A stretch of DNA of 64,000 nt from Elusimicrobiota bacterium (GCA_043810025.1 JBDRON010000056.1:19377-83376); one strand, 5' to 3'. Positions 4,708-47,340 are shown, counted from the first letter of the stretch. Made by a program: numbers and translations. The notes: generated by a model from the letters alone, not told the origin.

Positions 4708-5246
4708 AATTAGAAAAAGAAAATAAAATGGGGATTATTTTGGATAAAGCCCCGCTGATTCTGGAGAAAATACCCGGCGGAGGGATTGTTTTAACCACGA
4801 TGGATTTTTTTGTCAACTGGGCGCGCGAGTCTTCCTTGTGGCCGTTAACTTTTGGGCTGGCTTGCTGCGCGATTGAAATGATGTGCGCTTACGCTTCCCG
4901 GTTTGATTTCGACCGCTTGGGGGTTTTCCCCCGGCCGACACCCCGCCAAGCCGATCTGATGATTGTGGCCGGTACGGTAACCAAAAAAATGGCTTGTCGT
5001 CTGGAGCGGCTTTATCAACAGATGCCCGAACCGCGGTTTGTTGTTTCGATGGGGTCGTGTTCGAACAGCGGCGGCCCTTTTTTTGATTCTTATTCCGTTG
5101 TTAAAGGTGTGGATAAAATTGTTCCGGTGGACATTTACATCCCCGGCTGTCCGCCCCGCCCGGAAGCGTTGATTTACGGGGTAATGCAGCTGCAGAAAAA
5201 AATCGAAAAGATGAAGCTGTTGGAGTTAAGTAAAAGAAAATTGTAG
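4698..5246 (+). CDS. nuoB: NADH-quinone oxidoreductase subunit B (N2 Fe-S cluster)
   Basis: Conserved motifs [18 protein letters not shown] and IPGCPPRPE; overlaps the nuoA stop. Confidence 0.92.
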
Positions 5247-5255
5247 TGAGGACAA

Positions 5256-5723
5256 TTGATGGATAAAGATAATTTATTTGCTTACATTGTCAATAAGTTT
5301 CCGTTTGTGGAAAAATTAGCGAATTTTTTGCCGGCGGAAGAACTGGCGCTAAAAGTTCCGAAAGAAATATTTTTTGAACTGGCCCGTTTGCTGAAAGAAG
5401 ATCCGACCCTGAATTTTGATTATCTTTCCTTTATTACCGCTGTCGATTATGCCGATCGTCTTGAAGTTGTTTATCATTTTTTTTCTTTTGAGCACCGGCA
5501 CAAAATTTTTTTAAAGATTGATGTTTCCAGGGATAAATCCGAAATTCCCTCGTTGTTCGGGCTTTGGCCGACGGCGAATTGGCACGAACGGGAAACGTAT
5601 GATTTGCTGGGAATAAATTTTATCGGTCACCCTGATTTGCGCCGGATTCTTTTACCGGCGGATTGGCCGGAAGGACCGCCGTTAAGAAAAGACTATCAGC
5701 ACCAGGCAGATAAATACGACTGA
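5256..5723 (+). CDS. nuoC: NADH-quinone oxidoreductase subunit C
   Basis: 155-aa NuoC/30-kDa subunit-like (WPTANWHERETYDLLGI); position between nuoB and nuoD; not fused to nuoD. Confidence 0.88.
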   Translation: MMDKDNLFAYIVNKFPFVEKLANFLPAEELALKVPKEIFFELARLLKEDPTLNFDYLSFITAVDYADRLEVVYHFFSFEHRHKIFLKIDVSRDKSEIPSLFGLWPTANWHERETYDLLGINFIGHPDLRRILLPADWPEGPPLRKDYQHQADKYD

Positions 5724-5724
5724 G

Positions 5725-6837
5725 ATGAATAGTACAGAAAAGTTGCAAACAGAGACGATGTATATTAATATGGGGCCGCAGCATCCTTCGACGCACGGGG
5801 TGCTGCGGTTGGGTTTGACTTTGGACGGAGAAGTCGTTACCGCGGCAGATCCGGACATCGGTTATTTACACCGGGGAATAGAAAAGCTGGCCGAGAAACG
5901 CAATTATTTTCAGTTTAACCCGCTGACTGACCGGTTGGATTATCTGGCCTCGATGTCCAATAATTTGGCCTATTGTTTAACCGTGGAAAAAATACTGGGG
6001 GTGGCCATACCGCCGCGGGCCCAGGTGCTTCGCGTAATTATGGCCGAGCTGCAGCGAATTGCCAGCCATCTGGTTTATTTTGGCACTTATGGGGTTGATC
6101 TGGGAGCCGTTACGCCCTTTATGTACGCTTTTCGCGACCGGGAAGTGATTGTCGATTTGTTTGAATCGGTTTGCGGCGCCCGTCTCACCTATAATTATAT
6201 CCGTATCGGCGGGGCGGCCGCTGATCTGCCGGAAGGTTTTGTTGAAAAAACAAAAATATTTATCCAATCGATGGGGCCGCATCTCCAGGATTATGACAAC
6301 CTGCTTTCCGATAATGCTATTTTTCTGGACCGAACCAAAGGGATCGGAATTATCTCTGGAGAAAAAGCGATCGCTTATGGCTTAAGCGGTCCCAATCTGC
6401 GGGCTTCCGGGATAAAGTTTGATTTGCGCAAAGACGAACCTTATTCCGGATACGACCAATATAATTTTGCCGTGCCGGTTGGGACCAGGGGTGATTGCTG
6501 GGATCGGTATTATTTAAGGATGTCCGAGATTCGGGAAAGTTTAAAGATTGTTGAACAGGCTTTGAACAAATTGCCGTCAGGCGAGTATCTGGCTAAGGTA
6601 CCGAAAGTATTGAAAGTCCCGGCGGGAGAAACTTATCAGCATATTGAGTCCCCGCGCGGGGATTTGGGGTTCTATCTGGTCAGTGACGGGACAGAAAAAC
6701 CTTACCGGCTGAAAATTCGGGCGCCCTCCTTTGTTAATTTGCAAATCCTGGGAGATATTATGCCGGGTGGAAAGATCGCCGACATCGTCGCTATTTTAGG
6801 CAGTATCGATATAGTTCTTGGGGAAGTGGATAGGTGA
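5725..6837 (+). CDS. nuoD: NADH-quinone oxidoreductase subunit D (49 kDa)
   Basis: 370 aa; NiFe-hydrogenase-large-subunit-like fold typical of NuoD (MYINMGPQHPSTHGVLRL...RAPSF). Confidence 0.93.
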   Translation: MNSTEKLQTETMYINMGPQHPSTHGVLRLGLTLDGEVVTAADPDIGYLHRGIEKLAEKRNYFQFNPLTDRLDYLASMSNNLAYCLTVEKILGVAIPPRAQVLRVIMAELQRIASHLVYFGTYGVDLGAVTPFMYAFRDREVIVDLFESVCGARLTYNYIRIGGAAADLPEGFVEKTKIFIQSMGPHLQDYDNLLSDNAIFLDRTKGIGIISGEKAIAYGLSGPNLRASGIKFDLRKDEPYSGYDQYNFAVPVGTRGDCWDRYYLRMSEIRESLKIVEQALNKLPSGEYLAKVPKVLKVPAGETYQHIESPRGDLGFYLVSDGTEKPYRLKIRAPSFVNLQILGDIMPGGKIADIVAILGSIDIVLGEVDR

Positions 6838-8032: not shown

Positions 8033-8095
8033 ATAGTAGTTTTATTGTTTATTCTTGAACCCTCGAACCCTTTGCTTCTGAAGGAAGTATATTTT

Positions 8096-8503
8096 ATGAA
8101 CTATCTGAAACATGTCTTAATCTCAGCGCTTAGTTTGCTTAAAGGACTACTGGTCACTTTCCGCTATTTGTTTAAACCGGCGATTACTGTGCAGTATCCC
8201 TGGCAAAAAGTTGCCCTTAGCCCGCGGTATCGGGGTTTTTTGGAATTTAACGCCAAGACCTGCATCGTCTGCGGGATGTGCGTGAAAGCCTGCCCGGTGC
8301 AGTGTATTGCGTTGACGACGACTAAGGATGCCAACGGTAAAAGAGTTTTAGCCGGTTACGCGATCAATTTTAGCCTTTGCCAGTTTTGCCGGCTTTGTGA
8401 GGAAAGTTGTCCGGTGGCGGATAAATCGATAAAGCACGGTCAGAAATACGAAGTTTGTTTTACCAAACGGGAAGAGATGAATATTGTGATGTATCAAATC
8501 TGA
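8096..8503 (+). CDS. nuoI: NADH-quinone oxidoreductase subunit I (2x[4Fe-4S] ferredoxin-type)
   Basis: Two CxxCxxCxxxCP motifs (CIVCGMCVKACP, CQFCRLCEESCP); AAGGAAG RBS before ATG 8096 (the track start 8045 is an over-extension). Confidence 0.9.
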   Translation: MNYLKHVLISALSLLKGLLVTFRYLFKPAITVQYPWQKVALSPRYRGFLEFNAKTCIVCGMCVKACPVQCIALTTTKDANGKRVLAGYAINFSLCQFCRLCEESCPVADKSIKHGQKYEVCFTKREEMNIVMYQI

Positions 8504-8526
8504 TTTTTGCGTAGGGAGTTAACAAC

Positions 8527-9028: not shown

Positions 9029-9063
9029 GTTAGTTGTAGGGAACGGTCGCGACCGTTCCGCAT
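9029..9063. repeat. Family D palindrome GTTAGTTGTAGGGAACGGTCGCGACCGTTCCGC, copy D1
   Basis: Perfect 20-bp palindrome GGAACGGTCGCGACCGTTCC directly after the nuoJ stop. Confidence 0.65.
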
Positions 9064-14527: not shown

Positions 14528-14650
14528 AGGAAATTAGAAGTTTGTTGAAGTGTTCCCCCTTTTGAAAGGGGGATGAAGGGGGATTTTAAAATATTGATAA
14601 AATCTCCCCTACCCCTCTTTTTAAAGAGGGAAAAAAACGTCACAGGTGTG
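14528..14650 (+). repeat. Family A triple-hairpin REP-like element, copy A1
   Basis: GAAATTAGAAGTTTGTTGAAGTGTT-CCCCCTTTTGAAAGGGGG-ATGAAGGGGGATTTT...AAATCTCCCCTA-CCCCTCTTTTTAAAGAGGG-AAAAAAACGTCACAG; three consecutive stem-loops; immediately downstream of nuoN. Confidence 0.7.
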
Positions 14651-15470: not shown

Positions 15471-15516
15471 GGAAGAAAATTCCTGGTTAGCGAGAACTGA
15501 TTTCTTGTGCTATGTG

Positions 15517-15580
15517 TTGTAGGGAACGGTTTTTTAAAGAGGGAAAAAAACGTTACAGACAGGTAAAGTTCCGAGCGAAG
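15517..15580 (+). repeat. Composite repeat: Family D head (GTTGTAGGGAACGG) fused to a Family A 3' tail (TTAAAGAGGGAAAAAAACGTTACAGACAGGTAAAGTTCCGAGCG)
   Basis: The tail matches A1 positions about 14620-14665 almost base for base; the head matches D1/D2. Confidence 0.55.
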
Positions 15581-21485: not shown

Positions 21486-21593
21486 ACGGCAGCCTAAAAG
21501 CCTAAAAGGCTAAGAGTTATTAGCCCAAGAGTAAAGAATAAAAGCCTTTTTGGAGAAAATATGCTGACAAAAGAAAAAAGCAAGGAGACCTTG

Positions 21594-22368
21594 ATGAACA
21601 TTCATAAAACTGCTTTAGTCCATCCCGATGCGGTCATCGGTGAAGATGTGGAAATCGGTCCCTTTTCAATTATTGGGGGCGAGGTAAAAATTGGCAAGAA
21701 TACCCGGATTGGCGCCCATGTGGTAATTGAGGGAATAAGCGAGATCGGTGAGAATTGCCGGATATTTACCGGAGCAATCATTGGGAATTTCCCGCAGGAT
21801 TTAAAATATAAAGGGGGAAAAAACGAAAGTTGTGATCGGCAGCAACAATGTTATCCGCGAATATGTAACGATTAATCGGGGAACTGTGGCTGTGGGGGAA
21901 ACAAGAATCGGGGATAATTGTTTATTGATGGCTTATGTGCATATCGCTCACGATTGTTCCGTTGGTAACGGGGTAATTTTGGCGAATGTGGCTACTCTGG
22001 CCGGCCATGTGATAATTGAGGATAAGGCGGTCATCGGCGGGGTTACTCCAATCCATCAGTTTGTCCGGATTGGGACGATGGCCATCGTTGGCGGGGCCAG
22101 CCGGGTGGCTAAAGATGTGCCTCCTTATTGTATGGCGGCCGGTATGCCGATCCGGACATTCGGTTTAAATGTTGTCGGGTTACAGCGCAACGGAGTCTCT
22201 TCGGAGACTAGGGAACAGTTGAAGAAAGCTTACAAAACAGTTTTTCGTTCCAGCCTCAATGTCAGCGATGCGATCGCCGCTTTGGAGAGGGAAAGCAATC
22301 ATTGTGAAGAGGTTGCCTATTTTATTAATTTCATTAAACAATCCGAACGAGGGATATGCAAAGAGTAG
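21594..22368 (+). pseudogene. lpxA: acyl-ACP--UDP-GlcNAc O-acyltransferase LpxA, interrupted by a +1 frameshift in a G5 run (sequencing error or real pseudogene)
   Basis: Two overlapping ORFs (21561..21875, 21832..22368) together give a full LpxA. Deleting one G from GGGGG at 21813-21817 restores ...[29 protein letters not shown]... in one frame. Confidence 0.75.
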
Positions 22369-23159: not shown

Positions 23160-23180
23160 AAAAATAATTCGGATAGTAAT

Positions 23181-23265
23181 GTTAGTTGTAGGGAACGGTC
23201 GTGACCGTTCCGCTTTTGTCATGTAACAGAAATATAAGTTGTAGGGAAAGCATATCTGCGTTCCC
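23181..23265. repeat. Family D element, copy D2 (two GTTGTAGGGA units)
   Basis: GTTAGTTGTAGGGAACGGTCGTGACCGTTCCGC...GTTGTAGGGAAAGCATATCTGCGTTCCC; downstream of lpxI. Confidence 0.6.
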
Positions 23266-23287
23266 AGGTGAACCATAAAAATAGTCC

Positions 23288-23316
23288 TTGACAATACAAG
23301 TTATAACTTGTATACT
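23288..23316 (+). promoter_or_regulatory. sigma70-like promoter TTGACA-17-TATACT with a palindromic operator (CAAGTTATAACTTG) in the spacer, upstream of higB-like/higA-like
   Basis: Consensus -35 at 23288-93, 17-nt spacer that is itself a perfect 14-bp palindrome, -10 TATACT at 23311-16. Confidence 0.5.
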
Positions 23317-23340
23317 CTTATTAGAAATAAAGAGTAAAAG

Positions 23341-23688
23341 ATGCTGAAAAATATCTATTATTTTGTAGATGAACGGGGTGATAACCCGGTTAGAGAATTT
23401 ATAGATTCTTTGCCGATTAAAGAACGGGCAAAGATATTTGCTTACATTGAAGAATTAAGAAATCAGGGTCACAATTTGCGTAGGCCGATAGCGGATTATT
23501 TAGGTAACGATATTTATGAACTAAGACCTAAAAGCAATAGAATCTTTTATTTCTTCTTTTTAAAAGATAACGCGGTTTTGGTTCATGCCATAAAAAAGAA
23601 GACGGACAAAATTCCCAATGCCGATTTAAACTTAAGTATAAAAAGAAAAGGGTTGGTTGAGGAGTATGAACGAGTAGAAAAAATATAA
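23341..23688 (+). CDS. type II toxin, HigB-like / phage-related Gp49 (RelE/ParE superfamily)
   Basis: 115 aa, MLKNIYYFVDERGDNPVREFIDSLPIKERAKI...; followed 8 nt later by an XRE HTH gene (toxin-first HigBA arrangement). Confidence 0.68.
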   Translation: MLKNIYYFVDERGDNPVREFIDSLPIKERAKIFAYIEELRNQGHNLRRPIADYLGNDIYELRPKSNRIFYFFFLKDNAVLVHAIKKKTDKIPNADLNLSIKRKGLVEEYERVEKI

Positions 23689-23704
23689 TAGTGAGGTGAG
23701 CGGG

Positions 23705-24031
23705 ATGAAAAAAATTAAATTAGAAAAAATCGACGACCATTTAAACGCGGAATTAAAGAATGAAGAATTCAGAAGGAATTTTGAATTAGAAAGAGCTAAA
23801 GTATCGTTGGCTCAAAAAATAGCGGAGCTGAGACAGGATAAAAAACTGAAACAAATTGATCTCGCCAAGAAACTGCATGTTTCGCAGCAATTCATTTCCC
23901 TGATTGAAACTGCGCAAGAAAAGAATTTGACTCTGGAAACTTTAGTAAAAATTGCCAAGTCCTTGGGAAGAAGTGTCAAAATTTCTTTCCCCAAAGCCTC
24001 TGCCCAAGGTGCTCATCTCAAGATAGCATAA
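23705..24031 (+). CDS. HigA-like antitoxin, XRE-family HTH DNA-binding protein
   Basis: HTH region LRQDKKLKQIDLAKKLHVSQQFISLIE; GAGGTG RBS before ATG 23705. Confidence 0.68.
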   Translation: MKKIKLEKIDDHLNAELKNEEFRRNFELERAKVSLAQKIAELRQDKKLKQIDLAKKLHVSQQFISLIETAQEKNLTLETLVKIAKSLGRSVKISFPKASAQGAHLKIA

Positions 24032-24119
24032 TTTGTTTGAATACAAAGTAACAGATAAAAAAATACAGCCGACTAATTTTAGTTTAATTCCCTAGTTTAA
24101 GAATATAAGTAAGTTTAAT

Positions 24120-24593
24120 ATGAGTGAAGAAGAAAAATACGAGTACGATAGTAATATTTTGTCAATAAAGTATACAAAAATTACTGATACGATACCTGTT
24201 TCTGGTGCGAATACATCTACCAGTATATTTTGGGATCAAACAGAAATGCCTGATGCCGGAGTTCTTAAATTTTTAGAACCTTGTGGTCGGAATTGGAGAT
24301 TCGGAAAACTGGAAAATGAAATGAAGTATGTAGCGAGGGTGCACCACAAATTAAAATCAAATTCTAAAGGTAATTTCTATACTTTAATATGGAGTTGGAA
24401 AGATATTCATCAAGTAAAGGAGTGGCTTGAATTAGACGGTGTTGCAATAGACTTAAAAACAAAATTTGTTATTAGGCCAGGATGTTTAATCGCAATTGGG
24501 AATTTTAAGAAAAACAATAATCATCAAATTTATGTAAAAGAAAAAGAGGAATTTGTTCTTGAAATTACAGAAAGTACTACTAATATAGAATGA
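24120..24593 (+). CDS. hypothetical protein (ORF A of AT-rich island), translationally coupled to the next gene
   Basis: 157-aa ORF in a markedly AT-rich segment; 4-bp overlap (ATGA) with the downstream ORF; no recognisable motif. Confidence 0.5.
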   Translation: MSEEEKYEYDSNILSIKYTKITDTIPVSGANTSTSIFWDQTEMPDAGVLKFLEPCGRNWRFGKLENEMKYVARVHHKLKSNSKGNFYTLIWSWKDIHQVKEWLELDGVAIDLKTKFVIRPGCLIAIGNFKKNNNHQIYVKEKEEFVLEITESTTNIE

Positions 24594-25666
24594 AAACTTC
24601 TCCGATAAAACAATTACCAAACAATGACTATTTAATAAATCCTGGTGCTTCATTTGAAATGCATCTTTATAATACCGACATCAATACCGTAACCGAACTA
24701 GTTAATATTATGAAAAAAGGTGAGGAAGAAGGATCAGGAACTGGCGTTGTTAACTGTAAATTGTTGGAATTACTAGTAAAAAATAATGTTAGATGCCGTG
24801 AAATTGATTCTTATGTAAATGAATTTCGGCCACAATATATTCAAAATCTAAAAACATATTCTGGATTAAATGTTGACTGGCAGAGTATTAATGAAATTGA
24901 TATAAGTAGTATTCCAGAAGAAATCAGAAAAAAAGCAGTTGATGAGTTGCGCATAAAACCAGACACTAATATAGAGGTTTTGTTTAAACTTTATCCTTGT
25001 GATGATTCTGTGCCGATAGAAGTATTTAGGAAGTATCCCTTTAAAGTTATAGTAAAATATCTTAATGTTTGGGATCGGGGCAAAGAATTGAAAGTTATTC
25101 CTCTGGAACACCGAGATAGAAAAATTTACGAGAAAATGGTTGAATTGAATCTGTCTATGCAAGGGGAAGCAATTCCGCTTAAAGATATATTAGTGACTTT
25201 GAAATTATCTGAATTAAAGGAAATCGGTTTAAAGGTAAATACAGAGCCATCAAATAAGAAAGAAAAAGTTATTGAAAATTTACTGAGCAAAGAAGGTGTT
25301 GAAAAACAAATTCAAGGTAGTATTAATCTTAAAGACTATTTTAAACTTATTTCTATCGAACGAGAGTTTGGCTCCGATATATTCAGTAAATTAAATTCAT
25401 CCATTAAATATAATGAACTTAATGCAGACTTAATTGGGAGAACTTTTTTATTCTCTTATTACAATGATTCTAGGGATAATTCCTGGTCGAATCCAATATC
25501 TTCTGAACTAATCACAGGATATGAAATTTCAATGGTTTCCGATGCAAGATGTTGCCCTTACTGTAAAGATATGAAAGGAAAAAAGTTTGACAAAGTTAAT
25601 TGTCCTAAAATACCATTGCATTTGGCTTGTCGATGTGCGAAAGTCCCGCTAACAAAATATGGCTAA
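24590..25666 (+). CDS. hypothetical protein (ORF B) with SAP-like helix-extended-helix motif and C-terminal Mu-F/SPP1-gp7-like zinc-ribbon motif (CxYC...PLHxxCRC)
   Basis: 358 aa; LKDILVTLKLSELKEIGLKVNT...KKEKVIENLLSK resembles a SAP DNA-binding motif; C-terminus CCPYCKDMKGKKFDKVNCPKIPLHLACRCAKVPL resembles the conserved end of phage head-morphogenesis (Mu F) domains. Confidence 0.5.
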   Translation: MKTSPIKQLPNNDYLINPGASFEMHLYNTDINTVTELVNIMKKGEEEGSGTGVVNCKLLELLVKNNVRCREIDSYVNEFRPQYIQNLKTYSGLNVDWQSINEIDISSIPEEIRKKAVDELRIKPDTNIEVLFKLYPCDDSVPIEVFRKYPFKVIVKYLNVWDRGKELKVIPLEHRDRKIYEKMVELNLSMQGEAIPLKDILVTLKLSELKEIGLKVNTEPSNKKEKVIENLLSKEGVEKQIQGSINLKDYFKLISIEREFGSDIFSKLNSSIKYNELNADLIGRTFLFSYYNDSRDNSWSNPISSELITGYEISMVSDARCCPYCKDMKGKKFDKVNCPKIPLHLACRCAKVPLTKYG

Positions 25667-25702
25667 AGTATTTGAATAAAACACTGTATTAGGGGATTAA
25701 AT

Positions 25703-26155
25703 ATGTCGGGATCATTTTTATACATTGGAATTCATTTTATTTTTAGTACAAAAAATCGTGTGAACATAATTACTAGCGAAATAAAAGATAGGTTGTATTC
25801 CTATATTGGCGGAATAATAAAATCAATTAAAGGTATACCAATTGCTATAAATGGAATGCCTGATCATATCCATGTTTTTTGTATTGTATCACGGGAAATG
25901 ACCATTGCTGATTTTATGCGTATTGTTAAATCAAATTCATCAAAATGGTTGAATGAAACTTTTCCTGTTAAGCCAAAATTCCAATGGCAAGACGGATACG
26001 GTTCGTTTTCAGTCACTAAATCATCAGAAAATAAAATCATTGAATATGTAAAAAATCAAGAAGAACATCATAAACAAAAATCATTTCAGGATGAATTTAT
26101 TGAATATTTAAGATTGATGAAAATTGACTATGATGAAAGATATATATGGCAATAA
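25703..26155 (+). mobile_element. tnpA: IS200/IS605-family Y1 HUH transposase (TnpA) / REP-associated tyrosine transposase (RAYT)-like, solitary
   Basis: 150 aa; HUH motif MPDHIHVFCIV; C-terminal catalytic Tyr in EYVKNQEEHH (Y-x-x-NQ motif of IS200 TnpA/RAYT); no tnpB partner. Confidence 0.75.
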
Positions 26156-26400
26156 TACTCCGCCGCCCCGTTGGGGCTTATATTTTCATGGGTGATTATA
26201 GCGGGGATTACATCCCCGCCTATAATCCGCAATCCCTTCGGGATAATAAATTGAAAAAGATTGTAGTATGCTTTTATTTGTCCTGAAAGGACAACGGAAT
26301 ATAGGCGGGGGGCTTGCCCCCCGAAAATGAAATATTCCATGAACGATAAGCCCTGAAAGGGCGGAGGAAAAGCGCCCAAATTATTTATAAATTTTCAGTG
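26156..26400 (+). other. structured GC-rich hairpin cluster downstream of tnpA (possible IS end / REP-like hairpins / small RNA)
   Basis: Hairpins TATAGCGGGGATTACATCCCCGCCTATA (26195-26225), GTCCTGAAAGGAC, GGCGGGGGGCTTGCCCCCCG (about 26300-26322), GCCCTGAAAGGGC; the outer complement CTCCGCCGCCCC...GGGCGGAG frames the region. Confidence 0.45.
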
Positions 26401-26592
26401 TAATAAAAAGAGGTAAGCTATGGATTTCAAAATTTTATCTACTCACTCGTGGGGCGGAGATTTGACAGAAAAAAATTATTGGCCTAGAATCGGGGGAAAG
26501 TTTCCCTATTACGAAATTATCTGGTCGAAGGTTATAGCGCTCTTAACAAAGAGATCAGACAATTTACTTTTGGTTTAAAAAGGGGGGGTGTT

Positions 26593-27498
26593 ATGAAAAA
26601 TTTTTTTGAGAAAAATAAAATATTCTTGGGTATAATTATAGCCGGTTTGATGATTGCCGCAGCTATTTATTTTGGTTTAAATAAGCCGGCTGATAAAGAA
26701 AAATATTTATCATTATCGTCCTCGCCGTCTCCTGCCCAAAGTTTGGCGCCGGCTGAGGCTCTTGTCACTAAAGTTATCGATGGTGATACGATAATTGTTG
26801 AAGGCGGTTATAATGTCCGGCTTTTGGGTATTGATGCTGATGAGGCGGGTTATCCCTGTTACGAAGCAGCCAAAAAACGCTTAGAAGAATTGATTTTAAA
26901 TAAAACGGTGAGATTGGAAAAAGACCAAACCGATGTTGACCAATATAAAAGATATTTGAGGTATATTTTTCTTGACGACAAAAATATATGTTTAGAGTTG
27001 GTAAAAGAAGGCTTGGCAATTGCCAGATTTTATGAGCCGGATAGAAAATACAAAAACGAGATTGTTTCCGGCGAAAAAGAAGCGATTGAGAAAAAAGTTG
27101 GTTGCAAATGGTCCGCTTCCACCAATGTTTCGGCGGATAAATTATCTTACGAAAAAAACGAATTCTCCTATGAGAAATTAACCACGGGGAAGACCGGTTT
27201 AAAAGTAGTTGGCGCTTACCAATCAGGGAATTATTACGGAAGAGAAGTCATTGTGGAAGGAAAAGTAGTTGGCGCTTATCGCTCAAAAACAAATATAGTT
27301 TTCTTAAATTTTGATAAAACCTATCCCAATCAATATTTTGTCGGAGTTATTTTTAGTTCAGACCAGTATAAGTTTGTTGAGGCGCCGGAAAAATATTATG
27401 CGGGAAAAACCGTTAGAATCAAAGGAAAAATTAAGGAGTATCGCGGCAAACCGGAAATTATTATAAAAGACCCTTCCCAGATTGAGATAGGAAAATAA
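26593..27498 (+). CDS. membrane-anchored thermonuclease (SNase-like) with C-terminal OB-fold domain
   Basis: N-terminal TM; SNase core VIDGDTIIVEGGYNVRLLGIDADE...RYLRYIFLDDKN...; C-terminal OB-fold-like repeat (KVVGAY...KGKIKEYRGKPEIIIKD). Confidence 0.72.
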   Translation: MKNFFEKNKIFLGIIIAGLMIAAAIYFGLNKPADKEKYLSLSSSPSPAQSLAPAEALVTKVIDGDTIIVEGGYNVRLLGIDADEAGYPCYEAAKKRLEELILNKTVRLEKDQTDVDQYKRYLRYIFLDDKNICLELVKEGLAIARFYEPDRKYKNEIVSGEKEAIEKKVGCKWSASTNVSADKLSYEKNEFSYEKLTTGKTGLKVVGAYQSGNYYGREVIVEGKVVGAYRSKTNIVFLNFDKTYPNQYFVGVIFSSDQYKFVEAPEKYYAGKTVRIKGKIKEYRGKPEIIIKDPSQIEIGK

Positions 27499-27735
27499 AC
27501 TCATATATGCAAAGTCAAAATAAAAAAGGGAAAAATCTTTTTACAGTATCAAAAATTAGAGGGTATTGATTGGTTATGAAACTCACTAAAAAAGATTCAG
27601 AGACAATTTGTGATGTTTTTTTGTTTTCTGGTAAATATGATCTTATGGATGGAAATTGATAATGAGTAAAGAGACAATAGAAAAGCTCACAAATACAATT
27701 GCTCAAAATACCGAACCTAAAATTCAGCCGCGTAT

Positions 27736-27764
27736 TGTATATAACTGCGCATAATTAAAGGGAC
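27736..27764. repeat. left arm of a 29-bp perfect inverted repeat (TATATAACTGCGCATAATTAAAGGGACAT)
   Basis: Exact reverse complement found at 27958-27986; the pair flanks a 193-bp segment containing Family A copy A3. Confidence 0.8.
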
Positions 27765-27817
27765 ATCAGCAAAAGTGTCATAGCAACGAAAGCTGGTATC
27801 CAGAAAGTGTGATATAC

Positions 27818-27957
27818 AGAAATTTGAATGTTTGTTTTGCGTATATTCCCCCTTAAAAAAGGGGGACACAGGGGGATTTTGAAAATTAGAAATATTGTCT
27901 AAATCTCCCCTACCCCTCTTTTTAAAAGAGGGGAAAAAATACCACAGAACGAAACTC
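27818..27957 (+). repeat. Family A triple-hairpin element, copy A3 (inside the 29-bp IR pair)
   Basis: GAAATTTGAATGTTTGTTTTGCGTATATT-CCCCCTTAAAAAAGGGGG-ACACAGGGGGATTTTGAAAATTAGAAATATTGTCTAAATCTCCCCTA-CCCCTCTTTTTAAAAGAGGGG-AAAAAATACCACAG. Confidence 0.7.
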
Positions 27958-27986
27958 ATGTCCCTTTAATTATGCGCAGTTATATA
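27958..27986. repeat. right arm of the 29-bp perfect inverted repeat; contains the start codon of the downstream wHTH gene
   Basis: ATGTCCCTTTAATTATGCGCAGTTATATA; ATG 27972 (MRSYIVEK...) lies inside it. Confidence 0.8.
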
Positions 27987-28196
27987 GTCGAAAAAATAGA
28001 GGATAAAAACATAATTGTAGTTGATGTAAATGAATCTATTTATTTAAGAGAACATAAAGAAATAACTAGAAATGAATGTATGGAATTATTGAATTTAACG
28101 AGAGATATTGCAATTAGAGAACTTTTATCGTTGAAGAGAAAGGGAATTATTAAACAAATTGGTAAAGGGAAGAACATTTATTATGTACTTGTCTAA
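27972..28196 (+). CDS. small winged-helix DNA-binding protein (possibly a gene fragment)
   Basis: 74 aa; ...ITRNECMELLNLTRDIAIRELLSLKRKGIIKQIGKGKNIYYVL resembles C-terminal wHTH domains of Fic/AAA-type regulators; the start is embedded in the inverted repeat. Confidence 0.4.
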   Translation: MRSYIVEKIEDKNIIVVDVNESIYLREHKEITRNECMELLNLTRDIAIRELLSLKRKGIIKQIGKGKNIYYVLV

Positions 28197-28256
28197 CGAA
28201 AATGCGACGAATCCGATTCGTCTCAGGCGGATTGATTTTTGGTTTTGCGGAGTGAT

Positions 28257-30437: not shown

Positions 30438-32162
30438 ATGTATTCACGGTTAGCAAAGTATTTTCGGCCTTATTTAGCGCGGTTTTTGCAGGCGGTGGTC
30501 TGTATGCTTTTAGTTGCCGGCTTAACTGCTTTGTCAATGTGGATTTTGCGCGATGTCATCGATAAAATATTTATTGCTAAAAACCAAAAAATGCTGTTCT
30601 GGGTTGCCGGAGCCGTGCCGGCGATTTTTTTATTGAAAGCGATTTTCTCTTATATTCAAACTTATTTGATTGCTTATATCGGCCAGCAGATCATTAAGAC
30701 TCTGCGCAACGAATTATTTAATCATCTCCAGAAACTTTCCCTGGATTTTTACCATCGTAACCCCAGCGGCAAGATTATGGCCCGCCTGACCAACGATGTG
30801 CAAACATTACAGAATGCGATCACCCATGTGCCGTTGTATTTTATTCGTGACGGCTTTACGATAATTTTCCTGGCCGGGTTTCTTTTTTATCTGAATTGGC
30901 AATTTGCTTTGATTACGCCAATCGCGATTCTGGTTGCCGGCTGGCCGATTGTCCTCTTTGGCAAGAAACTGCGCAGTGTTGGCCGGCATGGCCAGCAAAA
31001 AATGAGCGATGTTTACACCTCGCTTCAGGAGAATGTCAGCGGGGTAATGGTGATTAAGGCTTTTAATATGGAGGATTACGAGCGGGAGAAGTTCACCCGG
31101 GAAAACCAGAACTATTTCAATATTGTGATGCGTTCCTTACGGGTGGAGGCGCTTTCCACTCCGGTTATGGAACTTATTGGGGCGGTCTCGATAACGATAA
31201 TTATTTTCTGGGGCGGCTGGGATGTAATTAAAGGGGTATGGACCGCGGGATCTTTTTTTGCTTTTTTGGGAGCTTGCTGGTCCACATATAATCCAATCAA
31301 GAATTTTGCCCAAATGAACAACAATGTCCAACAGGCTTTGTCGGCGGTGGAACGAATTTTTTCCTTGCTCGATGAGAAACCAAAAATCCAGGAAGTTGAC
31401 CATCCGATACAGCTGTGCCCGATCGAGCAGGAGATTCGGTTTCAAGATATCTGGTTTTCTTACTACCCTGGTGAATATATTCTAAAAGACATAAATTTTA
31501 TTATCAATAAAGGCGAGGTTGCGGCGCTAGTCGGCCCTTCCGGCGTAGGGAAAACCACCTTGATTAATTTATTGGCGCGGTTTTACGATCCGGTGCAAGG
31601 AGCAATTTTCATTGACGGTATCGATATCCGGCAAGCCGGCAAGAAATCGTTGTATGAGCAGATTGGGATAGTCACCCAGGAGACGATTCTTTTTAACGAT
31701 ACAATTTACAACAACATCGCCTACGGGCGCTGGGGAGCGTCGGATAAAGAAGTGGAGACCGCCGCTCAAATGGCTAACGCCCATGAATTTATTGGCCGGC
31801 TTCCCCAGGGTTATGGCACTTTTGTCGGTGAGCGGGGGGTGCTGTTGTCCGGCGGTCAAAAACAACGGATCGCCATCGCCCGGGCGATCCTAAAAAAACC
31901 TTCTATTTTAATTCTGGATGAAGCCACCTCCAATCTGGATACCGAATCGGAAAAACTAGTCCAGGAGGCTTTAGAACGGTTAATGGTCCGGCAAACCACT
32001 CTGGTAATTGCCCACCGTCTTTCCACGATCGCCCGCGCCGATAAAATAGTGGTTTTTAACCATGGCCGGATCGCCCAGATCGGCCGCCATCAGGAACTTT
32101 TAAAACAAGAAGGAATATACAAAAAACTTTTTGAACTCCAGTTTTCCAAAACCACAATTTGA
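30438..32162 (+). CDS. msbA: lipid A export ABC transporter permease/ATP-binding protein MsbA
   Basis: 574 aa; six TM + NBD with Walker A GPSGVGKTT, signature LSGGQKQRIAIARA, Walker B ILILDEATS. Confidence 0.85.
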   Translation: MYSRLAKYFRPYLARFLQAVVCMLLVAGLTALSMWILRDVIDKIFIAKNQKMLFWVAGAVPAIFLLKAIFSYIQTYLIAYIGQQIIKTLRNELFNHLQKLSLDFYHRNPSGKIMARLTNDVQTLQNAITHVPLYFIRDGFTIIFLAGFLFYLNWQFALITPIAILVAGWPIVLFGKKLRSVGRHGQQKMSDVYTSLQENVSGVMVIKAFNMEDYEREKFTRENQNYFNIVMRSLRVEALSTPVMELIGAVSITIIIFWGGWDVIKGVWTAGSFFAFLGACWSTYNPIKNFAQMNNNVQQALSAVERIFSLLDEKPKIQEVDHPIQLCPIEQEIRFQDIWFSYYPGEYILKDINFIINKGEVAALVGPSGVGKTTLINLLARFYDPVQGAIFIDGIDIRQAGKKSLYEQIGIVTQETILFNDTIYNNIAYGRWGASDKEVETAAQMANAHEFIGRLPQGYGTFVGERGVLLSGGQKQRIAIARAILKKPSILILDEATSNLDTESEKLVQEALERLMVRQTTLVIAHRLSTIARADKIVVFNHGRIAQIGRHQELLKQEGIYKKLFELQFSKTTI

Positions 32163-32383
32163 ACCGGTAACACCAGACCAGCCTCAACCTCGTCCCGATG
32201 CCCCTCTCCCCAGTAAGGGAAATTTTAAATGGGCTAATAATTTTGTTAATGGGTTAATAAATAGGGTAATATCGAAGTTGCTGCTTACCAAGAAAAAAAT
32301 TACTTTAATTGTCGTTAGTAGGGCAATTACACAACGTTGGTAGCCCAATAAATTGGGCAATTACTCTATTAAGGTAGACCACG

Positions 32384-32947
32384 CTAAATTGACTGATCGG
32401 TTAATTTTGGGATACCGAATTCTTTCTCTTTAATCATTTTTATATTTTTTTGGTTATCCCTGGAAAATATTTCAGTACTGAGCATAGTTAAACTAATTCC
32501 AAACATAATCATAAATACCGTGGCTATGTTAAAAAATTTCGCAGGTTTTGCTGTTATATTTTTCTGAAATTCGTGTTCAGATGTTTTCTGAAAAATCGGC
32601 AGGGTTAAAACATCAAATCCCAGACTTTGCCAATGAGGATAATCAATTTTTGCATATTCCAGATCGTCTTCCGAGCAGACCAGCAGCCCTCCCCGAATTA
32701 AGGACGGAGACAATTCTTCTAGTAATTGGGACACAAGATTCCATGGATTGGTCAGATAGACATAAACATTCTGACAGAATATGATATCCAATCTATTCAT
32801 TCGTTTTTTTTGGTGTTCATTTGTTATATTCAAAAACTCAAAATTTACCATTTTTTTAACTTTATCCTTCACCTGATAATATTCCGTTGCTTGGGGAAAG
32901 GGTAAAAAATATTCATTTACTATACTAGGCGGGTCAAAAAAGACCAT
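32384..32947 (-). CDS. CheR-like SAM-dependent methyltransferase C-terminal fragment with C-terminal TM segment (probably truncated)
   Basis: LDIIFCQNVYVYL and GGLLV motifs typical of CheR/class I MTase post-motif I regions; lacks a GxGxG N-terminus; AT-rich island. Confidence 0.3.
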   Translation of the reverse strand: MVFFDPPSIVNEYFLPFPQATEYYQVKDKVKKMVNFEFLNITNEHQKKRMNRLDIIFCQNVYVYLTNPWNLVSQLLEELSPSLIRGGLLVCSEDDLEYAKIDYPHWQSLGFDVLTLPIFQKTSEHEFQKNITAKPAKFFNIATVFMIMFGISLTMLSTEIFSRDNQKNIKMIKEKEFGIPKLTDQSI

Positions 32948-33598
32948 GAATTAATGAAAATTAGAGCAGCGATCGATTGGAGTTTTGTCGAAACTATGAC
33001 GCGTGAATTGTCTCGTGTTTTAATAGGAGTTTTATTTCATTGTAGATTCTTGTATCTTCTGTTTCGCCTGACAGTTTCATTGCCCAATCGAGTAGATATT
33101 TCTTATCCAGTTTGCCTGAATTTTTAATGGCGATACTTTCTGCATCGGCGATGTCTTTCGGTTTTCCGGGAATTATTTTCAGTAAAATCAAATCTTCAGG
33201 TGTGGGCAGATTTTTCTTTATTGAGAAATGTTACGATTTTTTTAAATACTTCAATTAAATTCATCTCTTTGCCTTTAACAGTAACTCATAACTTAAAGGT
33301 GTGTCTTTAATAAAATCACTTCCATGATGGTCGAAAAAAATCAACAAGGATTTTTGCAACTCTTCCTAGTTATTATACGCAATAGTTCAAGGATAGTAAA
33401 GAAATTTAAATTACAGAAATTTCCAGTTGTCCCTTTAGCAATATTGTATTACATACTTATTGTCGATGATAACTACGGATTGCTTCGTCACTTCGCTTCT
33501 CGCAATGACACTTCTGGCGGCTTTTCGAGCAGGAACTATGTCTGGCCCAGCTTTAAACTTTATAAAGTTTTACCGTATTTGACATTCTTTATAAAGTT

Positions 33599-34543
33599 AT
33601 GTATATTTTAAATATGGATATAAAAGAAAAACTTACTCTGATTAAAAGGTTGTCGAGGAAGACACAGGAAAAGCTGGCGGCTGAACTCGGGGTTTCTTTC
33701 CCGACGCTGAACAGCTGGATTAACGGAAAATCTGTTCCGCGCAAAGATGCGCAACGATTGATTGATGAGTTATACCTGCGTCTGATCGGACAGAATATAA
33801 TTCCTCAAACGCTGATTGAAGCAAAGAAGTTGGGAATATTAAATAAGCGGCTGGAGTATCCGAAAATTTTGCGCTTATTGCAAGACCGAAAAGATCTATA
33901 TGATCAATTTTTGCTTTCGCTAACCTATAATACCAACCGCATTGAGGGGAGCACATTAACCGAACCGGAAACGGCGGCAATCCTTTTCCAAAATGCCGCT
34001 CTGCCGGACAAATCCATTATTGAGCAGATGGAAGTAAAAAATCATCAGGCGGCTTTCCAATACATGATCCGGCATTTGGCTGGAGGGGGGGGAATTTCGG
34101 AAGAATTCATTCTTAGAATGCATGCTATCTTGATGAACGGGATCAGGGAAGACGTCGGACAGTATCGCCGGCACGGGGTGCGAATAGTCGGTTCTAATCT
34201 TCCGACTGCCAATTATCTGAAAGTGCCGGCGTTGATGCAAATCCTGATTGAGGAAATTTTTAAGGGTGAAAAAGATATCATCGGCTTGGTTACCCGTATT
34301 CACAGCCGTTTTGAGCAAATCCATCCTTTTTCCGACGGAAACGGTCGGATAGGCCGCTTACTGTTGACCGCGATGCTTTTAAAAGAAAACCTGCCGCCAG
34401 CGATTATTCCACAAGCGCAAAGACGATACTATATTCTCTACCTGAATCAATCCCAAACCCGGAATGATTATAGCCGTTTGGAAGATTTTATCAGCGATGC
34501 AATTCTGTCCGGCTATGATCTTTTGAACGAAAAATCATTGTAG
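33599..34543 (+). CDS. Fic/DOC-family protein with N-terminal HTH
   Basis: Fic motif HPFSDGNGRIGR; N-terminal HTH-like LSRKTQEKLAAELGVSFPTLNSWINGKSVP. Confidence 0.85.
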   Translation: MYILNMDIKEKLTLIKRLSRKTQEKLAAELGVSFPTLNSWINGKSVPRKDAQRLIDELYLRLIGQNIIPQTLIEAKKLGILNKRLEYPKILRLLQDRKDLYDQFLLSLTYNTNRIEGSTLTEPETAAILFQNAALPDKSIIEQMEVKNHQAAFQYMIRHLAGGGGISEEFILRMHAILMNGIREDVGQYRRHGVRIVGSNLPTANYLKVPALMQILIEEIFKGEKDIIGLVTRIHSRFEQIHPFSDGNGRIGRLLLTAMLLKENLPPAIIPQAQRRYYILYLNQSQTRNDYSRLEDFISDAILSGYDLLNEKSL

Positions 34544-35236: not shown

Positions 35237-35400
35237 GAATTTAAGAAACACTTCAGCCAGGGGAAGTCCGTGGGAATCGGACACTGCCCCGCAACGGTGA
35301 TTCCTTCCGCCATCAGGCGGATTGGATAAGTCCGGTCTACTGTCTGAAGCATAAATCCTAAAAAGTGTTTTTAGGATTGCCTGCGCGGGCGGGATGGGTT
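35237..35400 (+). promoter_or_regulatory. cobalamin (AdoCbl) riboswitch
   Basis: B12-box-like core ...AGGGGAAGTCCGTGGGAATCGGACACTGCCCCGCAACGGTGA... (the conserved ...GCCACTG... region appears as CACTGCC); 5' UTR of the cobO-btuFCD-cobCUTS operon. Confidence 0.75.
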
Positions 35401-37459: not shown

Positions 37460-37560
37460 TGATGTTATGTGTGTTCCCCTTTTAGAAAGGGGGATAAGGG
37501 GGATTTAGAAAATAATTACTAAATCTCCCCTAACCCCTCTTTATAAAAGAGGGGAATAAG
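37460..37560 (+). repeat. Family A triple-hairpin element, copy A4
   Basis: TGATGTTATGTGTGTT-CCCCTTTTAGAAAGGGGG-ATAAGGGGGATTTAGAAAATAATTACTAAATCTCCCCTAA-CCCCTCTTTATAAAAGAGGGG-AATAAG; between btuC and btuD. Confidence 0.7.
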
Positions 37561-47204: not shown

Positions 47205-47340
47205 ATTTCCTTCTTCTTTTGTTCCCCTCTTTTATAAAGAGGGGTTAGGGGAGATTTGGTAATTATTATTGTCTAAATCCCCCTTATCCCCCTTTAAAAA
47301 AGGGGGAAATTAGATTTTTGCTACACATTGAATTTCCTTA
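47205..47340 (-). repeat. Family A triple-hairpin element, copy A6 (reverse orientation)
   Basis: Reverse complement reads GGAAATTCAATGTGTAGCAAAAATCTAATTT-CCCCCTTTTTTAAAGGGGG-ATAAGGGGGATTTAGACAATAATAATTACCAAATCTCCCCTAA-CCCCTCTTTATAAAAGAGGGG-AACAAAAG. Confidence 0.7.

Follow-up and report, generated by a model that had tools for sequence, protein, structure and literature searches.

The 64,000-nucleotide stretch of DNA studied here (the window; JBDRON010000056.1, 19377-83376, with positions counted from its first letter) comes from an Elusimicrobiota metagenome-assembled genome. Between 23.28 and 28.2 kb it contains a compositionally foreign accessory segment, which we call the island, interrupting a co-oriented string of lipid A genes; the gene order is lpxD, a fused lpxC-fabZ, lpxA, lpxI, the island, a Gfo/Idh/MocA oxidoreductase gene, lpxB and an MsbA-like ABC transporter gene. 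The left flank is LpxI (E 5.5e-50), and the oxidoreductase on the right, followed by lpxB, has UDP-GlcNAc 3-dehydrogenase as its best match. On the island itself, all on the plus strand, are a toxin-antitoxin (TA) pair, two overlapping open reading frames (ORFs) that are both hypothetical proteins at NCBI, namely ORF A (ABII74_05450) and ORF B (ABII74_05455), a transposase gene (tnpA), a gene for a membrane-anchored nuclease, and a small ORF with a winged helix-turn-helix (wHTH)-like C-terminus. Our main subject is ORF B, which belongs to a large family of cellular proteins with a putative zinc domain related to that of phage MuF proteins.

A first-pass annotation, made by reading the sequence by itself, had described a segment clearly poorer in GC than its flanks and holding these genes in one orientation, and both statements held up. 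In 500-nt windows the GC content is 0.288-0.388 across 23.25-28.25 kb, while the lpx genes on either side have 0.436-0.508; binned at 1 kb, the island, at 0.306-0.364, is the minimum of the whole 64-kb window, which elsewhere lies at about 0.45. The island has five stretches of 150 or more codons without a stop, while 500 shuffles gave a mean of 0.02 and a maximum of 1. The GC content at third codon positions (GC3) is 0.32 and 0.38 for the two TA genes, 0.24 for ORF A as well as for ORF B, 0.21 for tnpA and 0.34 for the nuclease gene; in the flanking genes it is 0.44-0.54.

ORF B (24590..25666, plus strand) encodes 358 residues, which comprise an N-terminal β-hairpin and helical domain, a SAP-like segment and a MuF-core zinc domain. 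A word-indexed search returned only two relatives, which made the protein look like a near-orphan; this was overturned by a full HMMER scan with an alignment of ORF B relatives, which, with clustering at 50% identity, gives at least 435 cluster representatives at E<=1e-3 and 124 at E<=1e-30, from both bacteria and archaea. Most family members are about 400 residues long and match along their full length. In their sources they are named "hypothetical protein", bar one member labelled as DUF433 family, and the nearest genomic relative found in a profile search of genome contigs is that of an ANME-1 archaeon. The statement of the first-pass annotation that neither ORF A nor ORF B matches a named defence system is correct insofar as no PADLOC-DB 2.0 family matches either of them at E<=0.1; ORF B is nonetheless a member of this family of at least 435 clusters.

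The C-terminal part of ORF B, residues 278-358 (25421..25663, plus strand), is the MuF/SPP1-gp7-core zinc domain, with R284-T285, C322, C325, P342, H344, C347, R348 and C349 as its characteristic positions. Aligned with phage MuF proteins by hhalign, this C-terminus scores 98.2% with an E-value of 5.2e-14 over 79 columns. ORF B matches TIGR01641 at 1.6e-6 (28.5 bits, under the cut-off of 39.65), PF04233 at E 0.046 (14.9 bits, under the cut-off of 29.6), and phrog_2841 at 5e-6. When 50,697 phage genomes were searched by tblastn, matches fell on head-morphogenesis genes only; they mostly span residues 275-357 of ORF B, or begin at residue 230 or 261 in five Bacillus phage records, and a full-length match is absent from these genomes. 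The top Foldseek matches of the ORF B model in BFVD are likewise minor capsid proteins. By these alignments the C-terminal domain of ORF B is homologous to the phage MuF/gp7 core, with which it shares ancestry; the conserved Cys322, Cys325, His344, Cys347 and Cys349 suggest a zinc site.

For the whole of ORF B, an AlphaFold2 model based on a 70-sequence alignment has a pLDDT (predicted local distance difference test score) of 93.0 and a pTM (predicted template modelling score) of 0.89. The SAP-like helix-turn-helix segment at about residues 197-233 (25178..25288, plus strand) is a putative DNA-binding motif. Structural matches are seen both to FAN1 and to SAP domains, with the similarity to FAN1 being modest (TM-score below 0.3); the family profile has no match among PDB sequences at E<=1, and hence no FAN1 sequence match, and Pfam detects no VRR-NUC domain in ORF B itself. 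Outside the zinc site, the near-invariant polar residues are N17, E71, R177, K224 and T285, among which no catalytic set can be recognised. Most likely, ORF B is a cytoplasmic, non-enzymatic DNA-binding protein.

The relatives add information on where such a module is placed and to what it is joined. An N-terminal transmembrane (TM) segment precedes the ORF B module in 87 of 154 sequences, and in 73 of these 87 the residues after the TM segment are the richer in Lys and Arg, so that the module would lie on the cytoplasmic side; ORF B of the window and its nearest relatives are without a membrane anchor. Three kinds of fusion were found. One relative, P0034, has a C-terminal VRR-NUC domain (6.2e-17) that matches the nuclease domains of human and Pseudomonas FAN1 (1.8e-19 and 3e-13, respectively); the fusion was independently assembled at 99% identity, and VRR-NUC occurs in this lineage only. 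Another, P0057, carries an N-terminal HIRAN domain (28.8 bits, compared to a Pfam cut-off of 24.7) and is present on 6 contigs. HIRAN domains bind 3' DNA ends. The third, P0021, is a singleton with the order signal peptide, SNase (staphylococcal nuclease) domain, TM segment, module. Homologues split into two ORFs, either decayed or frameshifted, were seen in two loci (L039, 2420-3645; L052, 5821-7036).

We also looked at the genes surrounding ORF B relatives. We predicted genes in the related loci with a simple greedy ORF picker, and two genes were scanned on each side of the homologue; 54 loci with a strong ORF B-family match provided 129 neighbours, and the family scans of these cover the 25 families listed. 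Clustering the neighbours of the 54 loci revealed none in common beyond near-identical contigs, and Pfam assigned 124 families to the 129 neighbours, each in no more than two of them. Portal, terminase and capsid genes are all missing from the 129 neighbours as far as the 25 listed families go; portal and terminase genes are also absent from 10 adjacent genes scanned singly and from 399 genes scanned with phage portal and TerL queries, and in the island itself Pfam and PHROGs find no portal, terminase or capsid gene. By comparison, 85-87% of muf genes adjoin a portal or terminase gene, and 96% of bacterial muf genes lie inside prophages or their remnants (PMC5576092). On phage contigs that we inspected, the MuF gene is preceded by genes of ~430-480 and 420-580 codons, which are portal- and large-terminase-like by size and order only.

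Which genes do occur next to the homologues is varied. Pairs of SbcD-like (Metallophos) and SbcC-like (AAA_23) genes adjoin them in two unrelated loci (L003, 278-3455; L030, 7160-11060), and in the former the SbcC-like gene ends 2 nt 5' of the ORF B homologue. HicB and VapB antitoxins are found, as are Schlafen/AlbA_2 and RelA/SpoT proteins; there are housekeeping neighbours too, such as XseA, a PurQ-like GATase, ThyX, RF-1 and efflux pumps. PADLOC families number 57 in the 129 neighbours and 10 in 59 ordinary genes of the window, an enrichment of about 2.6-fold against a control that is small and may itself include defence genes. As ordinary window genes also match PADLOC, we treat the defence signal of these neighbourhoods as weak, and a defence association of the ORF B family as no more than suggestive. 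In loci of the ANME-1 type, a conserved protein of ~496 residues, which contains a coiled coil and ends in a faintly Mrr_cat-like region (E 0.063), is encoded directly upstream of the homologue (L001, 2-973; L010, 1880-3370), and in L010 it is preceded by a type IIG restriction-modification (RM)-like gene. Genes for Y1 (HUH) transposases resembling RAYTs (transposases associated with repetitive extragenic palindromic (REP) sequences) lie near homologues in two unrelated metagenome loci, in L052 directly upstream (5242-5754, plus strand) and in L019 at 8047-8517 (minus strand); the presence of Y1 genes beside ORF B family members may be a coincidence or a recurrent association.

ORF A (24120..24593, plus strand) precedes ORF B, and its stop overlaps the ORF B start in the sequence ATGA; the overlap and the lengths of 157 and 358 residues, as first annotated, can be read directly in the sequence. 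Codon usage in ORF A is coding-like in its own frame only. No family in Pfam, PHROGs, PADLOC or NCBIfam matches it, a search of 5.8 billion proteins returned ORF A itself as the sole match, and nothing was found in 50,697 phage genomes, 72,556 plasmids and IMG/VR, or by tblastn or phmmer in 68 loci with ORF B relatives or MuF genes. Judged by these searches ORF A is a true orphan, and because it is without any homologue, its pairing with ORF B is confined to this contig and is not conserved. We considered whether ORF A could be a diverged N-terminal extension of ORF B that was split off by a frameshift, and rejected this, as it bears no likeness to the N-terminal extensions in the family or to upstream genes in the related loci. 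ORF A and ORF B are probably co-translated from one transcript, with ORF A as a lineage-specific add-on to ORF B.

Upstream of these two genes, the island begins with a TA module. Its promoter, TTGACA-17-TATACT (23288..23316, plus strand), matches the consensus at 11 of 12 positions and contains in its spacer a perfect 20-nt palindrome, ATACAAGTTATAACTTGTAT (23294-23313); the pair, its consensus promoter and the palindrome had all been recognised in the first-pass annotation, and the palindrome is likely the antitoxin operator. The toxin gene (23341..23688, plus strand) encodes a Gp49/DUF891 type II toxin of the HigB/RelE-like kind with 115 residues (PF05973, E 1.8e-20, 73.2 bits compared to a cut-off of 23.9), which also matches phrog_2523 at 3.8e-15. 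After a gap of 8 nt from the toxin stop follows the gene for a HigA-like XRE-family HTH antitoxin of 111 residues (23696..24031, plus strand; HTH_3 2.5e-12, 47.1 bits compared to a cut-off of 23; HTH_37 1e-10), with sub-threshold matches to HipB and HigA antitoxin models as well. Given the usual layout of such modules, the XRE antitoxin probably represses its own promoter via the spacer palindrome.

Only 36 bp separate the intact ORF B stop from tnpA (25703..26155, plus strand), and they contain no hairpin and no recognisable left end. The product, 150 residues long, is a Y1 (HUH) transposase of the IS200/IS605 family of insertion sequences (IS) (PF01797, 2.3e-26; NF033573, 69.4 bits compared to a cut-off of 55), with the HIH motif and the GYGSF tyrosine visible in the translation and with relatives annotated as tnpA. 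Of the earlier designation "IS200/RAYT-like", the first half is thus borne out; RAYT identity was rejected, with 21 bits for NF047646 compared to a cut-off of 80, and the REP-like repeats of the window do not flank tnpA. Directly 3' of the gene, ~210 nt of GC-rich nested hairpins (26159..26370, plus strand) have a minimum free energy of -99.1 kcal/mol (z -7.2), with 0 of 200 shuffles as stable; this region is a candidate for either the right end of the IS or a structured RNA. The structured regions of the island have no match in Rfam at gathering thresholds or at E<=1, and the 64-kb window holds no second copy of the tnpA unit.

Next comes an ORF of 52 codons without a Pfam match (26420..26578, plus strand), within which a strong promoter-like site, TTGACA-17-TAGAAT (26462-26490), lies upstream of the nuclease gene. 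The nuclease (26593..27498, plus strand; 301 residues) is, as had been proposed, a membrane-anchored SNase and OB-fold enzyme: PF00565 is matched at 5.9e-16 (59.3 bits compared to a cut-off of 21), the OB fold at a sub-cut-off E of 3.9e-4, and a hydrophobic stretch is seen in the translation at about residues 10-28. A partial NucI-like match (3.1e-21) was also obtained. Downstream lies a MITE-like foldback (miniature inverted-repeat transposable element) of 249 bp (27738..27986, strandless) with 32-nt terminal inverted repeats and a DNA fold z-score of -10.9. Its arms, 27738-27769 and 27955-27986, are 97% complementary, and the right arm supplies the beginning of the wHTH ORF, its ATG and first five codons, which have their mirror image in the left arm; no recombinase gene is found near the foldback. 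Candidate identities for the foldback are a MITE, an inverton-like switch and a scar left by rearrangement. The wHTH ORF itself (27972..28196, plus strand; 74 residues) gives weak matches only, namely HTH_Crp_2 (3.7e-3), AbiEi_4 (0.033), phrog_12156 (1.9e-5) and an ArsR-type domain (2.9e-3). It had been described as lying behind the inverted repeat; both are present, but they overlap, and since the start codon lies inside the right arm the ORF may be a remnant. A dispersed, REP-like hairpin repeat, TCTAAATCTCCCCTACCCCTCTTTTTAAAAGAGGGG, occurs here at 27901-27939, inside the foldback, and again at 14600-14637, 37519-37556 and 47222-47257, with 94-95% identity; the copies are intergenic.

Both edges of the island are marked by structured sequence. 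On the left, two REP-like palindromic units after lpxI (23181..23264, plus strand) together form the edge; the first of them (GGAACGGTC..GACCGTTCC, then a T-run) is terminator-like, with its site at 23192-23211, and a direct repeat, D1, is found at 23175-23195 and 23228-23248. On the right, the GC content steps up from 0.33 to 0.51 at ~28206-28234, where a hairpin with a T-run (28206..28234, plus strand), directly 5' of the oxidoreductase gene, is terminator-like on both strands. Terminator-like hairpins follow lpxI, tnpA and the wHTH ORF, and no tRNA genes usable as integration sites were found. The REP-like repeat, TGTTAGTTGTAGGGAACGGTCGTGACCGTTCCGC, occurs in the window at 23181-23213, 9029-9061, 15516-15530 and 23228-23264, with the copy at 9029-9061, 14 kb upstream of the post-lpxI unit, being 97% identical over 33 nt; its core, GTTGTAGGGAA, has 4 occurrences where 0.98 are expected.

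Some observations concern the remainder of the window. The lpxA gene is split into two overlapping ORFs, 21561-21875 (104 residues) and 21832-22368 (178 residues), the first of which ends out of frame; this apparent frameshift in an essential lipid A gene means either a pseudogene or an assembly indel, and the assembly may accordingly contain indels. Right after the MsbA-like gene there is a milder low-GC stretch (32000-34000; 0.37) with a minus-strand ORF of 187 codons (32384-32947) and small ORFs. An adenosylcobalamin (AdoCbl, cobalamin) riboswitch is predicted at 35238-35379 on the plus strand (53.1 bits compared to a gathering score of 50). Outside 23281-28200, PADLOC matches comprise MzaA (1.7e-49), PDC-S04 (2e-44), mad3 (2 genes; 8e-34), SoFic (7e-29) and AriA (1.6e-14), which are either real defence genes elsewhere in the window or cross-matches to generic domains.

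Taking all of this together, we consider it probable, with moderate confidence, that the island is a horizontally acquired mosaic of five independent modules and not one system, and that ORF B is a DNA-binding MuF-core protein. The modules would be a TA pair of the HigBA type; ORF A with ORF B; a solo IS200-type transposase with its structured 3' element; an SNase-OB nuclease that is membrane-anchored, probably extracytoplasmic, and served by a promoter of its own; and the foldback overlapping the wHTH remnant. The unequal GC3 among the modules fits a piecemeal assembly, and the separate strong promoter-like sites of the TA pair and the nuclease, together with the terminator-like hairpins, also count in favour of the mosaic. 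The first-pass annotation had proposed a coherent defence or mobile module, for which we found no support: ORF A is without homologues, no neighbour is common to the 54 loci, and GC3 differs along the island. The two genes singled out there are not a conserved pair; at the same time, ORF B does not look like a phage structural gene of the ordinary kind in a prophage, since MuF homology is confined to its last ~80 residues and no portal or terminase genes were seen among the scanned neighbours of its relatives.

In terms of mechanism, we suggest that ORF B combines DNA recognition by a FAN1-like or SAP-type module with a Cys/His zinc domain, and that in most relatives the module is held at the inner face of the membrane by the N-terminal helix. 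A SAP/FAN1-like module that recurs in fusions with HIRAN, FAN1-type and SNase domains points to the recognition of DNA ends or branched DNA. ORF B would thus recognise such structures and recruit or regulate nucleases in cis or in trans, while the MuF core may add DNA or partner binding.

Several points weigh against this reading of the island. That the segment is an insertion, and where its boundaries lie, is suggested by composition and operon logic, and both DNA binding and zinc binding are predicted properties of ORF B. The ATGA overlap and the common GC3 of 0.21-0.24 in ORF A, ORF B and tnpA would also fit a single imported unit with a joint function. In P0021 the SNase domain is placed outside and the module inside; this mirrors the window, where the SNase gene lies 0.9 kb downstream of ORF B, and a cooperation between ORF B and the nuclease is thus conceivable. 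Lastly, clear defence genes do occur near relatives of ORF B, including DruA (1e-87), a type IIG RM gene (4e-83), SspH (2e-57), ThsB and Mokosh-like helicases. Overall, we regard a cellular role in defence as possible but doubtful, with a role in repair as the alternative.

Two explanations based on defence can be set against the mosaic. ORF B alone could serve as a one-gene defence or exclusion protein that descends from a domesticated phage head protein and intercepts incoming phage DNA or binds phage portals by its MuF core, membrane-tethered in most species. SPP1 gp7, the best-studied MuF protein, binds DNA and the portal; for phage Mu GpF, the biochemical function of the MuF core is still described as unknown (PMC5576092). 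In favour of this explanation are the MuF-core homology to such a protein, the occurrence of the family by itself in variable neighbourhoods with RM, Druantia, Ssp, Thoeris-like, Mokosh-like, Schlafen/AlbA_2, RelA/SpoT and TA genes, the membrane tether in over half of the members, and the decayed copies in L039 and L052, which are typical of accessory genes. We nevertheless think it unlikely, given the many housekeeping neighbours, the weak enrichment over the control, the lack of an experimental precedent, and a window copy that has no membrane anchor. The other explanation is a lineage-specific anti-phage system made up of ORF A and ORF B, possibly with the nuclease, in which the SAP and MuF-core domains of ORF B would serve to sense phage DNA or proteins resembling portals, with ORF A or the nuclease as the effector. 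The overlapping and compositionally similar genes, the adjoining TA module and transposase, the defence genes near ORF B relatives and the SNase fusion in P0021 can all be read in its favour; what makes it quite improbable is that ORF A has no homologue and the pair is not conserved, that neither gene matches a PADLOC model, that the neighbours exceed ordinary genes only modestly in their rate of PADLOC matches, that tnpA lies between ORF B and the nuclease, and that a separate promoter serves the nuclease, whose N-terminal anchor would probably hold it outside the cell.

The remaining two explanations derive the island from a mobile element. If ORF A, ORF B and tnpA were one IS200/IS605-type unit with ORF A and ORF B as cargo and 26159-26370 as its right end, this would account for their similar GC3, the tight spacing and the structured sequence 3' of tnpA, and the loci L052 and L019 do have a Y1 transposase gene close to their ORF B relative. 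Those genes are, however, RAYT-like, another type without similarity to the tnpA of the window; moreover, no hairpin-bearing left end is found 5' of ORF A, the window holds no second copy, and IS200 elements rarely carry cargo upstream of tnpA, so we judge a cargo unit very unlikely. Least probable of all, and in our view hardly tenable, is that the island is a prophage remnant with ORF B as a degenerate minor head (MuF) protein. The weak PF04233, phrog_2841 and TIGR01641 matches, the minor capsid proteins found by Foldseek in BFVD and the phage-derived name of the Gp49 toxin family would suit such an origin, but the homology covers only the last ~80 residues with no full-length match in phages, the ORF B family is conserved along its full length in bacteria and archaea, and packaging genes were seen neither in the island nor among the scanned neighbours in the 54 loci, compared to the 96% and 85-87% quoted above for muf genes (PMC5576092).

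The mosaic of independent modules remains the reading we prefer. There is little remarkable about the island, which is a variable hotspot holding a TA pair, an IS-type transposase and a nuclease. The ORF B family, on the other hand, is undescribed: it places a MuF zinc core in at least 435 cellular clusters, even though MuF domains are treated as almost exclusively phage head components (PMC5576092). If this cellular occurrence of the MuF core holds, its biochemistry would become approachable in a simpler, non-virion setting, and the family would add to prokaryotes either a DNA-surveillance or defence protein of a new kind or a further branch of FAN1-like DNA-structure recognition. We speculate, while considering it rather unlikely, that the family arose when cells captured a MuF/gp7 zinc core, joined it to a FAN1-like/SAP module and usually tethered it to the membrane, giving a protein that by itself senses or blocks invading DNA ends or phage portal complexes. 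It would then be a single-gene anti-phage or DNA-surveillance family in which some lineages recruited FAN1-type, HIRAN or SNase domains.

Compared to known systems, the island resembles defence islands and variable hotspots in its low GC and in carrying a TA module, a transposase and a nuclease between conserved genes, and differs from them in that PADLOC recognises no defence system within it. There is nothing unusual about the TA pair when it is placed beside HigBA-type type II modules, with which it shares the toxin-first order, family matches above threshold and a palindrome inside the promoter, its toxicity and autoregulation being predicted from the sequence. Like IS200/IS605 elements, the transposase unit has a Y1 HUH gene above the NCBIfam equivalog cut-off and structured DNA 3' of it; unlike them, it has no recognisable left end, is present in a single copy in the window and lacks tnpB. 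The nuclease shares with thermonuclease-like SNase-OB enzymes (NucI/YhcR-like) the D-G-D-T, R and E positions, the OB fold and an N-terminal anchor, but scores under the equivalog cut-offs and is thus no orthologue of a named enzyme. ORF B differs from FAN1 and its bacterial homologues in having no VRR-NUC domain and only modest similarity of fold, while FAN1 has no MuF-type zinc domain. From the phage MuF/SPP1 gp7 proteins (PF04233, TIGR01641) it is set apart by its first ~275 residues, which are without MuF homology, by the position of the core at the extreme C-terminus, by scores under the Pfam and NCBIfam cut-offs, and by a family that is mostly membrane-anchored and found without portal or terminase neighbours or a prophage; its last ~80 residues nonetheless carry the R-T...D..CxxC...PxH(L/I)(G/A)CRC core that these phage proteins have.

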